Origin: Eubacteriales bacterium
GTDB taxonomy: Bacteria; Bacillota; Clostridia; Oscillospirales; CAG-272
Assembly (NCBI GenBank): GCA_045632065.1
Contig: JAZQWA010000087.1
Coordinates: forward strand, 1 to 59,440
Direction: 5' to 3'
DNA: 59,440 bases
In this document: in pieces, positions 16,356 to 20,210 of the stretch
Layout: every line of letters starts with the position of its first letter
Numbering within the stretch: position 1 is the first letter of the stretch
Made by a program: the position numbers and the translations under genes
Notes under the pieces: model-generated
What the model was told of the DNA's origin: nothing
The model's input: only the letters and a program-made list of their open reading frames with translations
The model's database searches: none

Positions 16356-17405
16356 ATGGAATCAACAAAACCCGTTATTACAAAAGAAACCAAAAACAAG
16401 ATTTCTGTTGATTATGAAGGCAAGCTTCCCCTTAAGGAAAGAATAATCAGAAAGCTTAAAGCGTCTAACACCTGGGTTGTTGCAGGCGTTAACGTGCTTC
16501 GCTTTATTCTGATGCTTGGTATATCCTTCGTAATCCTTTATCCCTTCTTTGCAAAGATTGCAGGCTCGTTTATGACTAAGGAGGACGTAGTTGACGCAAC
16601 TATTCTCCTTATTCCCAAGAACTTTACTCTTGAGCAGTATAAGTGGATTATAGTAGATAACCGTTATTTCGAGGCATTCTTCAACACTCTGTTCCTGTCG
16701 CTTTTATGCGCCCTGATACAGACCTTTGTTGCCTGCCTTGTTGGTTACGGACTTTCCAAGTTCAAATTCAAGGGTAATAAGCTGGTTATGATTGCCGTGG
16801 TAATTACAATGGCAATTCCTGCAAACACTCTTATGCTTTCTATGATGAGACACTTCACGTTCTTTGATTTAGGAAACATAATGGCTCTTGGAAAACCCGG
16901 TATATTAACGAGTATATTTGGCAAAATCGAGCTTATAGACACCTTCTGGCCATTTATTATCCTGTCGGTTTGCGGTCTCGCATTTAAGAACGGACTTTAT
17001 ATCTATATGATGCGTCAGTTCTTCAAGGGCGTTCCCGATGAGCTTGAGGAGTCTGCATACGTTGACGGCTCGGGTACCTTCCGTACTTTCATTCAGATTA
17101 TTATTCCTCTTTCTGTGCCTATGATGATTACCATCTTCCTCTTTGCATTCTCATGGCAGTGGACTGATGAAACATATTGGCAGAACTTTATGCCAGGATG
17201 GAGTGAAAATGCGCCTTGGATGATGCCCAACGTTGCAAGACAAATCCCCAGTCACCTTCAGGTTACCTACGCAGGCCAGGCGCTTTATGAAAACGTAATT
17301 CAGAATACCGCAGGTATGATGATTATTGCGCCCCTTATCATTATGTACCTCTTCTGTCAGAGATACTTGGTGCAGGGTATAGAGCGTTCCGGTATCGTTG
17401 GCTAA
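16356..17405 (+). CDS. Carbohydrate ABC transporter permease (MalG/UgpE-like)
   Basis: GYGLSKFKFKG, MRQFFKGVPDELEESAYVDGSG, YLFCQRYLVQG; ATG 16356 follows AAGGAGG. Confidence 0.93.
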   Translation: MESTKPVITKETKNKISVDYEGKLPLKERIIRKLKASNTWVVAGVNVLRFILMLGISFVILYPFFAKIAGSFMTKEDVVDATILLIPKNFTLEQYKWIIVDNRYFEAFFNTLFLSLLCALIQTFVACLVGYGLSKFKFKGNKLVMIAVVITMAIPANTLMLSMMRHFTFFDLGNIMALGKPGILTSIFGKIELIDTFWPFIILSVCGLAFKNGLYIYMMRQFFKGVPDELEESAYVDGSGTFRTFIQIIIPLSVPMMITIFLFAFSWQWTDETYWQNFMPGWSENAPWMMPNVARQIPSHLQVTYAGQALYENVIQNTAGMMIIAPLIIMYLFCQRYLVQGIERSGIVG

Positions 17406-17641
17406 TCAAGTGATGCCATATTTGGCAAAATCATAAAATTACCGCCGTTTGCTGTACTCTCGACGTAGGTAACTACGCCTTCGGTCGCAAACGGCGGTTT
17501 TTGCTCAAATCTGCATATCACTTGATATAGGAAAAACAGCATATTTGCGCACATGCCGTCAAAGGCTCGCTTGGAGTATGTGAATACACCGTCGCTTGCC
17601 TAAGACGCCCTGCGCATCAAATCTGCTCGGTTTTGATTAGC
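17401..17641. repeat. Composite palindromic element holding two copies (A 17406-17525, B 17538-17627) of a structured repeat, bounded by a 9-bp inverted repeat
   Basis: GCTAATCAA (17401-17409) / TTGATTAGC (17633-17641); TCAAGTGAT...ATCACTTGA closes unit A; both units run CATATTTG...CAAATCTGC around a GTAN-N4-NTAC hairpin; a third copy lies at ~53260-53482. Confidence 0.8.
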
Positions 17642-17664
17642 AGAAACAAAGATAAATGCAAAAT

Positions 17665-17702
17665 GCTCCTCGCAACAAATGTTGCGAGGAGCTTAATTTT
17701 TT
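17665..17702. terminator. Intrinsic terminator between the transport operon and the convergent AbrB gene
   Basis: GCTCCTCGCAACA-aa-TGTTGCGAGGAGC perfect 13-bp stem with T-rich and A-rich flanks. Confidence 0.85.
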
Positions 17703-17716
17703 TATTCTTGTTACTG

Positions 17717-17944
17717 TTATTTATGATAATTTTTCAATATTTTCTCAATGCATGATTTGCATAGAGGAATCATGCTATCATCCGAAATTTTGTCTCTGCA
17801 TATTTTACAGCAAGGTTCGTAAGCTACAACTGTAACACCTTTACCCGAATCAAGAAATTCAATCGTTGTACCTTCGTCTAAACCGTATTTTTGCCGTAAT
17901 TCCTGCGGAATAACTATCCTTCCGAGTTTATCAACTTTTCTCAT
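17717..17944 (-). CDS. AbrB/MazE/SpoVT family transcriptional regulator with C-terminal CxxC...CxxC
   Basis: MRKVDKLGRIVIPQELRQKYGL is the AbrB signature; CKIC and CKSC; ATG 17944 follows GGGAGGG (ORF track start is TTG 17956). Confidence 0.9.
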   Translation of the reverse strand: MRKVDKLGRIVIPQELRQKYGLDEGTTIEFLDSGKGVTVVAYEPCCKICRDKISDDSMIPLCKSCIEKILKNYHK

Positions 17945-17954
17945 AATCCCTCCC

Positions 17955-18167
17955 AAAAATAAAAAGTGCGCCTACCGAAGCAGACGCACAAAAACGCAAA
18001 CTTCAATAGTCGCCAAACTAATCATTGTAAATTGGTTTCCCATACATCACAAAGTGAAATTTGCATTTTATCAAATTTAAATTTTGTAATGTACAGAAGT
18101 ACAAAAAGAGCATATTTTCCCCGGTGAGAAAATAAACCTATTTACAATATTTGATTAGTTTGGCATA
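17955..18167 (-). ncRNA. Putative structured leader RNA / attenuator (or sRNA) ending in an intrinsic terminator upstream of the AbrB gene
   Basis: 13-bp perfect long-range helix 18164-18152 with 18024-18012; 15-bp helix 18069-18055 with 18005-17991; terminator GTGCGTCTGC-TTCG-GTAGGCGCAC-TTTTTATTTTT (17989-17955). No known family recognised. Confidence 0.6.
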
Positions 18168-18170
18168 TTT

Positions 18171-18199
18171 ATTATAACATCTTTTTTTTAATTTGTAAA
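18171..18199 (-). promoter_or_regulatory. sigmaA promoter of the structured leader/AbrB unit
   Basis: Minus strand TTTACA (18199-18194), 17 bp spacer, TATAAT (18176-18171) with extended TG. Confidence 0.7.
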
Positions 18200-18220
18200 G
18201 ATGTTTTGCTTATTATGTGT

Positions 18221-18262
18221 AAAAAAAAATAAGCTCTCCTCGAAATCGAAGAGAGCTTATTT
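18221..18262 (-). terminator. Intrinsic terminator of the aromatic amino acid operon
   Basis: AAATAAGCTCTC...GAGAGCTTATTT stem with a T tract on the minus strand. Confidence 0.85.
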
Positions 18263-18297
18263 CTGTTTGTGTTATTTATAATATTACAAAAGTGATT

Positions 18298-19329
18298 TTA
18301 TAATTGTTCTGCAATATCGTAAATAAGCCTTTCGGTCTTTTCCCAGCCGAGGCAGGGGTCGGTTACGGATTTTCCATAAACCAGGTTGTCGCAGATTTTC
18401 TGCGCTCCGTCTTCAATATAGCTTTCAATCATCAGACCCTTAACAATGCTGCGAACATCCTTGGAATATTTACAGCTATGCACGACTTCCTTGGCAATTC
18501 TGGGTTGTTCAAGATGCTTTTTGCCCGAATTTGAGTGGTTGGTGTCCACGATTACCGCAGGATTTGCAAGACCGGACGCGGAATACTTCTCATAAAGGTC
18601 ATAAAGATCCTCGAAATGATAATTAGGATGAGATTTTCCGTGCTTATCCACGTAACCGCGCAGAATTGCATGCGCAAGGGGATTACCCTCGGTTTTTACC
18701 TCCCAGCCTCTGTAAAGAAAGACGTGAGAGCCCTGCGCCGCCTTGATAGAGTTCATCATAACGTCAATATCTCCGCCTGTGGGGTTCTTCATTCCAACGG
18801 GAATGTCGAGTCCGCTTGCGGTCAGTCTGTGCTGCTGGTCTTCAACCGAGCGCGCGCCAACTGCAACATATGCTAGAAGGTCGGAAAGATATCTGTGATT
18901 TTCGGGATAGAGCATTTCGTCTGCGCAAGCAAAGCCTGTTTCGCTTAGCGCGCGCATGTGCATCTTTCTTATTGCAACAATGCCTTTAAGCATGTCCGGC
19001 TTTTGATTGGGGTCGGGCTGATGAAGCATACCCTTGTAGCCCTCGCCGGTTGTTCTCGGCTTGTTGGTATAAATTCTGGGAACGATAATAATCTTGTCGG
19101 AAACCTTTTCTTGAACAGAACGAAGCCTTGAAATATAGTCGATAACAGAATCCTCTCTATCCGCAGAGCAGGGACCTATAACGAGTATAAACTTGTCGCT
19201 CTCACCTGTGAAAACCTTGCTTATAGCATCTCTTTGTGAGCTTATGATGCCTTTTTGTTTATCTGTAATTGGAAACTGCTCTTTAATTTCCTGTGGTACA
19301 GGCAGTTTCCTGTAAAATTGCATATTCAT
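18298..19329 (-). CDS. aroF: 3-deoxy-7-phosphoheptulonate (DAHP) synthase, class I
   Basis: VIGPCS, KPRTTGEGYKG, AVGARS, VGMKNPT, HAILRG, DTNHSNS, GLMIES, YGKSVTDPCLGW. Confidence 0.93.
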   Translation of the reverse strand: MNMQFYRKLPVPQEIKEQFPITDKQKGIISSQRDAISKVFTGESDKFILVIGPCSADREDSVIDYISRLRSVQEKVSDKIIIVPRIYTNKPRTTGEGYKGMLHQPDPNQKPDMLKGIVAIRKMHMRALSETGFACADEMLYPENHRYLSDLLAYVAVGARSVEDQQHRLTASGLDIPVGMKNPTGGDIDVMMNSIKAAQGSHVFLYRGWEVKTEGNPLAHAILRGYVDKHGKSHPNYHFEDLYDLYEKYSASGLANPAVIVDTNHSNSGKKHLEQPRIAKEVVHSCKYSKDVRSIVKGLMIESYIEDGAQKICDNLVYGKSVTDPCLGWEKTERLIYDIAEQL

Positions 19330-19346
19330 AAAAATTTCTCCCTAAC

Positions 19347-20210
19347 TTACTTTTGTGGCTTGTCAAAAAGCGACCTTCTTGATGAGGATGAGCGCATCTT
19401 TTCTCTCATGCGCTTGCCATCGCCTGCCGCAAGATAGTCTCTGAATTCCGTAAATTCCTCTAAGAATCTATCCATTTCTGAAAGCAGAGCATCCTTGTTC
19501 ATAAGGAAAAGCTCTGACCACATTCTATCGTTTATTTTTGCAATTCTCGTTAAATCCCTGAACGAGTCGCCTGTATATTTTTCAAGTACGTCAGAATCAT
19601 TGCAGTTCATCAGTACAACGGCGATACAGTGCGTCAGCTGGGAAAGGAATGCTATCATCTCGTCATGCTCCTCGGGGCTTAACTCCGAGATACGAGCGAA
19701 GCCAAGCTCCTCTCCAAGCTTTTTACAAAGCTTAATTGCCTCAAGTGAATTCTTATCGGTAGGTGTTACTATGTAGTTAGCTCCCTCGAAAACAGAAGGG
19801 TCTGCAAATTCAACTCCCGAGCGCTCTCGGCCTGCCATAGGATGCGCCGCAATAAACTCCACGTCGTCTCGGAGCATTTCCTGCACCTTATATACAACAC
19901 TGCCTTTTACGCCGGTAACGTCTGTGATAATGCAACCTTTTGTAAATAAATGTTGATATTTTGCTACCCAATCAATAAAAGCATTGGGGTAGAGCGCGAA
20001 AATTATCAAATCAGATTTTGCAACCAAATCAGGTTCAACCTCGGTCGAACCATAGCAAATCATACCTTTTTTAAGACCGAATTTTATGTCTTGTGCCTCT
20101 TTGGTTATACAGCTTACCTTATAACCCTTACAGCTCAGCGCCATAGCGTAGCTTCCGCCTATGACTCCAAGTCCTATAATCAAAATGTTTGTGTCCTTAT
20201 CTAATTTCAT
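19347..20210 (-). CDS. tyrA: Prephenate dehydrogenase
   Basis: IIGLGVIGGS, DVTGVKG, HPMAGRE, EEHD, SQLTH, SFRDLTRIA. Confidence 0.93.
   Translation of the reverse strand: MKLDKDTNILIIGLGVIGGSYAMALSCKGYKVSCITKEAQDIKFGLKKGMICYGSTEVEPDLVAKSDLIIFALYPNAFIDWVAKYQHLFTKGCIITDVTGVKGSVVYKVQEMLRDDVEFIAAHPMAGRERSGVEFADPSVFEGANYIVTPTDKNSLEAIKLCKKLGEELGFARISELSPEEHDEMIAFLSQLTHCIAVVLMNCNDSDVLEKYTGDSFRDLTRIAKINDRMWSELFLMNKDALLSEMDRFLEEFTEFRDYLAAGDGKRMREKMRSSSSRRSLFDKPQK

Follow-up and report, generated by a model that had tools for sequence, protein, structure and literature searches.

The minus strand of the window, meaning the whole 59,440-nt stretch of DNA that was analysed, encodes upstream of a small abrB gene a leader RNA that is, by sequence comparison, one copy of a multicopy promoter-plus-leader family in gut Clostridia. 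The predicted two-state RNA is strongly conserved, uncatalogued, outside all Rfam families and attenuator-like. New here is that near-identical RNAs of the family stand ahead of unrelated genes, with an identity that appears to end at the terminator U-tract. It is rather probable that this portable leader is a transcription attenuator acting as a pause-timed kinetic switch, the cargo of which is exchanged by recombination in or behind its 3' end.

Locus architecture and family distribution

The unit lies between aroF (DAHP synthase) and an ABC permease gene, within an accessory cassette on the minus strand that extends approximately over 17657-18294 and measures ~640 nt, compared with ~125 nt between the same flanks in the relative G044. 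A terminator-like hairpin of the upstream aroF gene (18221-18268) would insulate the unit. The original prediction described a TTTACA-17-TATAAT promoter, and the site at 18199-18171 scores as a SigmaA/70-type promoter with a TG extended -10 and 11 of 12 matches to consensus; it is the top of 15 sites in 16500-19500 (shuffles gave 7.6 ± 2.9). Family members place the end of the -10 box 6, in some cases 7, nt ahead of the G with which helix P1 begins, a spacing that makes G18164 the predicted +1. The leader RNA of ~205 nt (17960-18164) ends in the terminator U-tract, and the segment between G18164 and the U-tract (17961) has a folding energy of -73.4 kcal/mol (z = -8.75), a value equalled by none of 200 shuffles.

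The long-range pairings that had been proposed were recovered. P1 joins 18164-18152 to 18024-18012 with a complementarity of 13/13, and its extension, P2, joins 18148-18134 to 18038-18024 with a complementarity of 93%; the P2 sequence varies among copies and the pairing is retained. P4 (18094-18082 with 18053-18042) closes a large apical loop that holds the P5 hairpin (18057-18078; 18078-18072 pairs with 18063-18057). The crossing helix, read off the sequence as 15 bp including two G-U pairs, is a putative pseudoknot that joins 18069-18055 in the apical loop to 18005-17991 and competes with P5. Its 3' strand (17990-18005) has a U5 tract at its end, a candidate NusG-type pause motif. The intrinsic terminator expected ahead of abrB occupies 17961-17989 (10-bp stem at 17989-17966, UUCG loop, U-tract), and identity among near-identical copies stops at its end. 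It is followed, as had been described, by a Shine-Dalgarno sequence (17954-17948) and an ATG at 17944, which opens a gene (17717-17944) for a 75-residue AbrB/MazE/SpoVT-domain protein with a C-terminal CxxC..CxxC (PF04014, E 5.9e-9; TIGR01439, above cut-off). A bidirectional terminator-like hairpin (17665-17692) closes the cassette. REP-like palindromic elements lie between the permease gene and the cassette at 17401-17530 and 17531-17640, the former with 22 BLAST matches in its own genome including itself and the latter with none but itself at E 1e-4. In G044, elements related to them stand on either side of the empty site.

Neither of the two small internal hairpins of the original prediction is a family feature. 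The one at 18132-18115 is specific to this copy, and homologues carry instead a U-rich strand and a different small hairpin, P3, which are missing in short variants. The other, a TCAC/GTGA hairpin, lies partly on the bases that form the 3' strand of the long helix P4. The TGTATGGG landmark suggested for collecting homologues is not conserved among them, and the pattern gave 0 matches in viral contigs.

The view that the RNA resembles no known riboswitch or T-box consensus agrees with the Rfam search, in which all matches of the window fell below the gathering score even when hits with E up to 10 were listed. No Rfam 15 family, including T-box, the known riboswitches, raiA, drum, skipping-rope, ARRPOF, HEARO and 6S, reached its gathering score in the window, nothing was found on the element itself in 20 related loci including short variants, and nothing was found in six own-genome paralogues at E 0.01. 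Some loci have catalogued RNAs or tRNA genes beside the element. A drum RNA (RF02958, 76 bits) at L178:706-823 lies ~200 nt upstream of three tandem promoter-plus-RNA units (1033-1698), a Gut-1 RNA match at L026:1740-1810 immediately precedes a family copy recovered without its 5' part, and a tRNA gene stands within 400 nt upstream of 20 of 242 copies, mostly on the same strand (e.g. L061, L304, L064).

Homologues with conserved, covarying pairing do exist, as the original prediction required, and 45 of them were aligned (the window, 6 paralogues and 38 picked from 130) and used to build a covariance model. The window's own genome, G000 (1.59 Mb, 79% complete), holds seven full copies and one truncated by a contig end. 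Covariance-model searches found the family in 122 of 150 same-genus genomes, in 34 of 149 same-class genomes and, in a phylum-wide draw, in 1 of 150 other genomes, itself of the same class. The richest genomes carry at least 15 copies; the best 15 candidates per genome were scored, so that the counts per genome are lower bounds. An exact 28-nt pattern, which fixed most of the linker and thus selected most loci by linker sequence, matches at least 120 loci and an estimated ~1800 stretches in the genome collection; the 80 matches listed are all from Clostridia and nearly all from metagenome-assembled genomes. The carrier genomes examined are without exception metagenome assemblies, and repeats may be joined wrongly in them.

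The median pairwise identity among copies is 65%, and many families of Clostridia retain the architecture. Copies of only 150-190 nt, the short variants, have no U-rich junction, and their three-way junction is lost. In one of them (L195:1502-1668) the RNA begins with a sequence almost the same as that of the terminator 3' strand, so that P1 and terminator strands are interchangeable. A strict promoter pattern is passed by 87 of 130 copies, and most others have a degenerate box in the same place. A phage- or plasmid-borne element was considered and no sign of one was seen: three family patterns gave 3, 0 and 0 matches in viral contigs, plasmids gave 0 matches to the family pattern and phages gave 1 partial match. 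A longer-spaced pattern gave 3 matches in metagenome contigs. No description of this RNA family was found in the literature covered, which contains few subscription papers, and a listing among the candidates of PMC8040213 is possible. The accessible parts of PMC11109978 and PMC8040213 contain no such motif, and six motif strings are absent from those supplements of PMC8040213 that were searched.

Alternative pairing in the 3' region

Comparison of the copies has shown two mutually exclusive sets of predicted helices, the pseudoknot with the terminator and P5 with an antiterminator. The antiterminator, which was overlooked in the original prediction, emerged from mutual information in 130 copies as a pairing of the post-P1 linker with the loop and 3' strand of the terminator. 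In the window its 5' strand, which consists of the linker and the start of the pseudoknot 3' strand, lies at 18001-18013 and its partner at 17968-17980, so that pseudoknot and antiterminator compete for the same bases. In the 45 aligned copies, where covariation figures count sequences and not evolutionary events, P1 is 98.5% paired with both sides changed in 9 of 13 pairs, the pseudoknot 98.6% (4 of 14), the terminator 100% (5 of 9) and P5, which shares the pseudoknot 5' strand, 90.8% (4 of 7). The antiterminator is 90.1% paired and 6 of its 13 pairs covary, whereas slid registers are only 29-53% paired (the control was the whole structure with the P5 helix misplaced by one column).

The key position between linker and terminator pairs in 117 of 130 copies. 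In the larger set it pairs in 234 and is mismatched in 27 of the 261 copies that could be parsed (38 of 299 were unparsed). Where the variable linker position is a G, as in 15 copies, the base opposite is C in 13 and U in 2. The energy comparison covered 157 copies, after 8 of 165 were dropped for a missing loop motif. The antiterminator is the strongest same-length window of its own RNA in 145 of these and beats all 30 shuffles in only 110; its own partner is better than swapped partners in 130. For the pseudoknot the own partner is better in 132 of 157, with a mean margin of only 1.2 kcal/mol, and its strands may also pair in trans between paralogues.

In the window copy the nested folds are near-equal, at -72.7 kcal/mol with the terminator and -71.6 kcal/mol with the antiterminator, and the pseudoknot duplex is worth -15.1 kcal/mol before the loop penalty and the loss of P5; the pseudoknot is therefore predicted to be the part able to decide between them. 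In the nested ensembles of 130 copies the antiterminator is preferred 69 times and the terminator 57 times. The geometry of the pseudoknot is demanding, because the linker of 6-9 nt must span the 24-51 bp between the P1 base and the apical loop; in the OFF state P1 may therefore open, with no classical pseudoknot being made. The linker repeats part of the P1 5' strand and can form a short hairpin with the P1 3' strand, which in the window is 4 bp long (18020-18017 with 18010-18007). This hairpin requires the P1 base to be opened, reaches at least 4 bp in 153 of 157 copies compared with 56% of shuffled linkers, and is still possible in L189, where its sequence is entirely different. A triplex between the U-rich strands and the pseudoknot, also considered, would involve strands that short variants do not have.

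Downstream genes and their exchange

The genes behind the terminator are mostly surface and membrane genes, as far as their predicted products indicate, and share no common pathway. A Shine-Dalgarno sequence and an ORF of at least 40 residues stand within 100 nt behind the terminator in 250 of 290 copies, at a median of 27.5 nt. Among 218 downstream ORFs, 57 are lipobox-like by a crude pattern and 118 have a hydrophobic N-terminal segment. A Pfam scan of 113 downstream products returned LRR_5, zinc-ribbon, Flg_new, SHOCT, DUF4234, SLOG, AMP-binding, Ltp and superinfection-immunity domains, along with many unnamed proteins, and a glycosyltransferase family is also present. The scan of these 113 proteins found no transposase family and no ToxN, CptN or TenpN toxin family, and clustering of 335 neighbours revealed no recurring family other than LRR proteins. 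The link to AbrB in the original prediction proved incidental, as the AbrB motif occurs in 6 of 218 downstream ORFs and 2 of 7 own-genome copies, and 4 of the 6 MazE/AbrB matches in the Pfam scan (including the window) came from a BLAST query that contained abrB. Further AbrB-family genes are found on G000 contigs C70, C82, C28, C22, C72 and C75, where no RNA copy was found. A small Cys-rich family with a CCCDEC motif recurs as cargo (L155, L157, L014, L075, L097, L049, L349, L365); it has no Pfam or NCBIfam match where scanned and is sometimes fused to a second unnamed domain, which is found with another N-terminus in L098.

To judge from identity among copies, the downstream gene is often replaced and the RNA is portable with its promoter. 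The comparison used 299 distinct copies (333 found; 34 further partial matches dropped). RNA identity reaches at least 90% in 95 pairs, which are not independent of each other; 78 of them have unrelated and 12 related downstream DNA, and 5 could not be assigned. In 26 independent pairs identity reaches background by ~8 nt past the terminator stem. The promoter and RNA appear to move together because promoter likeness is still above background in 19 independent close pairs (discriminator 0.65 vs 0.46, spacer 0.54 vs 0.38); the left edge of the exchanged unit is not sharp, and the same promoter recurs ahead of different genes. Mobility bounded by the transcript was considered as a general rule and dropped in view of this position profile of identity. 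In G535 and G536 the unit is 98% identical, the genes are unrelated and the downstream sequences rejoin at 75-87%. Pairs with related downstream DNA have RNAs less than 80% identical in 41 of 54 cases, and most of these belong to one Cys-rich gene family.

At the window locus itself, none of 29 other aroF loci of the genus has the RNA or abrB (2 of them have almost no downstream DNA), and the aroF-permease order occurs without the cassette in seven relatives. The form seen in the window is present in sequencing run X1. Runs X3 and X5, from different samples of the same study as X1, each yield a contig that is 99% identical (4 differences) over 17560-17970 and then diverges for 66 nt. The divergent letters, known for X3, belong to a different terminator of the family, in which 7 of the 14 central positions differ and pairing is intact along the whole stem. 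A joint that skips the cassette was seen in none of 7 distinct runs.

Homologous recombination in the conserved 3' block would be the simplest route to such exchange. Purifying selection on the RNA over a long time can explain part of the contrast between RNA and flanks, and misjoined assemblies can explain part of the exchange pattern. A bolder reading, which is possible but rather doubtful, is a dispersed gene-capture system free of recombinase, in which the RNA switches would be sockets, the conserved 3' 60 nt would be the place where defence-like genes and genes for surface and membrane proteins are swapped, and all would obey a single common signal acting on the RNA. Two loci show other rearrangements. 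Upstream of the promoter, the unit in L066 follows the 3' end of a gene that we take from its translated C-terminus to be rpsI, compared with only a 15-nt copy of that end in L125, an arrangement that resembles an island attachment site. In L108:1640 the promoter is apparently deleted between two short repeats, and the RNA and downstream sequence match L068.

Proposed switch, rival explanations and known systems

In the proposed OFF state the apical loop would pair with the strand before the terminator, forming the pseudoknot, and the terminator would form; in the ON state P5 would occupy the apical loop and the post-P1 linker would pair with the loop and 3' strand of the terminator. The available part of PMC11602163 describes the B. 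subtilis NusG pause signal as TTNTTT spanning -11 to -6, together with a hairpin 11-12 nt upstream, and reports that NusG pauses precede the terminator/antiterminator decision in several riboswitches. By analogy, the polymerase would pause a few bases beyond the U5-6 tract, within the terminator 5' strand, and such a pause would expose approximately the first 10 nt of the pseudoknot 3' strand. The tract has 5 U in 176 copies, 6 in 88, 4 in 13 and 7 in 2 (279 of 299 parsed); the exact TTNTTT occurs in only 90 of 279, and the window copy reads GTTTTT. A pseudoknot formed during the pause would deprive the antiterminator of its GAAG/GGAG half and lead to termination; if no pseudoknot formed, the near-equal nested folds would let a fraction of transcripts read through. 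The switch would thus be kinetic and OFF most of the time, and elongation rate or a protein that influences whether the pseudoknot forms would tip it; low or conditional expression of accessory, mostly envelope genes would be the outcome. The nature of the trigger is the weakest step of this proposal, and its chances against the rivals are about evenly balanced.

Two sequence features of an attenuator are present: an intrinsic terminator lies between promoter and gene, and a conserved helix excludes it. Among the 20 short variants (<190 nt), five have this helix displaced or of low stability (-2.8 to -8.0 kcal/mol). The earlier suggestion of a read-through switch thus gains from the comparison of copies, in which a conserved, covarying antiterminator excludes pseudoknot and terminator, while its tie to AbrB finds no support. 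RNA run X20, in which 0.04 of the words occur, contains contigs over the conserved 3' block (17972-18038) and none over abrB; they represent relatives' copies, may come from DNA and do not count towards the proposal. A role for the RNA itself would fit the 40 of 290 copies in which no ORF was detected and the tandem promoter-plus-RNA units that have no gene between them (three in L178, two in L228, two in L049). P1 beginning at +1 would hinder decay from the RNA 5' end because B. subtilis RppH, according to the accessible part of PMC3997798, requires at least 2 unpaired 5' bases.

The same features bear on readings other than an attenuator with a kinetic trigger. An orphan riboswitch for a common signal, such as a second messenger or an ion, would use its ligand to stabilise the pseudoknotted fold and turn a surface regulon OFF. 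The terminator/antiterminator platform, the high copy number in some genomes and the envelope-rich downstream genes agree with it, and envelope-rich gene sets resemble cyclic-dinucleotide regulons. It is nevertheless unlikely: a few unpaired bases are conserved (AAUA after P1), but nearly every invariant base belongs to a helix and has two or three possible partners, short variants have no three-way junction, and the AbrB, SLOG, AMP-binding and glycosyltransferase families share no pathway. A metabolite riboswitch in particular, for which downstream genes of a single pathway would be expected and were not found, has little support because the alternative pairings explain nearly all conserved bases and no pathway is shared. 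A constant dimmer, meaning a portable promoter with fixed low or stochastic read-through that would make new genes safe without any sensing, is very unlikely. It would suit the difference of ~1 kcal/mol between the nested ON and OFF folds in the window copy and the fast turnover of unrelated genes, but a leaky terminator would need less than the 200-nt architecture of five helices that many families of Clostridia have kept.

Other readings make the transcript itself the product or the mobile unit. That the terminated 205-nt RNA acts in trans or as a protein scaffold, with the genes as leak-expressed passengers, is quite unlikely. Nearly every copy has its own promoter and terminator, the P1 start at the predicted +1 would suit a stable RNA under the RppH requirement cited above, and gene-less tandem units exist; however, a covarying antiterminator would be purposeless in a constitutively terminated RNA, most copies are followed closely by a ribosome binding site and ORF, and the preference of the pseudoknot for its own partner is also against it, albeit by the small mean margin noted. 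A non-autonomous retro-element, whose transcript would be inserted at transcription start sites, is highly improbable. The RNAs of G537:C32 and G538:C15 are 100% identical from +1 to the U-tract behind different promoters, and the terminator-to-start-codon spacing is like a short 5' UTR. The promoter nevertheless travels with the RNA in the 19 independent close pairs and recurs with different genes, the other pair with 100% identity (L068/L108) is apparently the result of a promoter deletion, and no RVT_1 match came from G000 (79% complete) or from four of five further carriers, most genomes being incomplete.

The family is abundant (~1800 stretches by the estimate from the 28-nt pattern), absent from Rfam and unusually clear in its two-state design, so that the trigger of the proposed attenuator can be tested directly. 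It would reveal how variable surface genes are expressed and replaced in uncultured gut Clostridia. Should a dedicated process underlie the swapping at the terminator, the result would be an integron-like system that lacks an integrase and is linked to a switch made of RNA.

Type III toxin-antitoxin loci (ToxIN, CptIN, TenpIN) consist of a promoter, a pseudoknotted RNA, an intrinsic terminator and a short gene expressed by read-through. The present units have the same order, but they have no short tandem repeats in the RNA, no downstream toxin family and no constant partner protein, and they have an antiterminator; ToxI/ToxN is mentioned in the available part of PMC8040213. The riboswitch and attenuator platforms of Firmicutes with NusG pauses (fmnP, tenA, mgtE, lysP, mtnK), as described in the accessible part of PMC11602163, share with this leader an exclusive terminator and antiterminator, a T-rich tract before the decision point and an upstream fold that hides the antiterminator strand. 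Here, in contrast, there is no known aptamer or Rfam match, the unit has its own promoter and many paralogues before unrelated genes, and the hiding fold would be a 15-bp long-range pseudoknot on a rod of 30-50 bp. The closest printed concept is that of the mobile attenuators of Naville and Gautheret 2010 (PMC2965389, available part), which are shared terminator elements upstream of unrelated genes and derive from IS elements. In the present family the whole promoter-plus-switch is conserved with covariation, and the 113 downstream proteins include no transposase.

At the Pc/attI site of an integron, unrelated promoterless genes are exchanged behind a resident promoter region. Exchange behind a promoter is common to both systems; here no neighbouring integrase was seen, and the sites are instead dispersed, each serves a single gene and each carries a predicted RNA switch.
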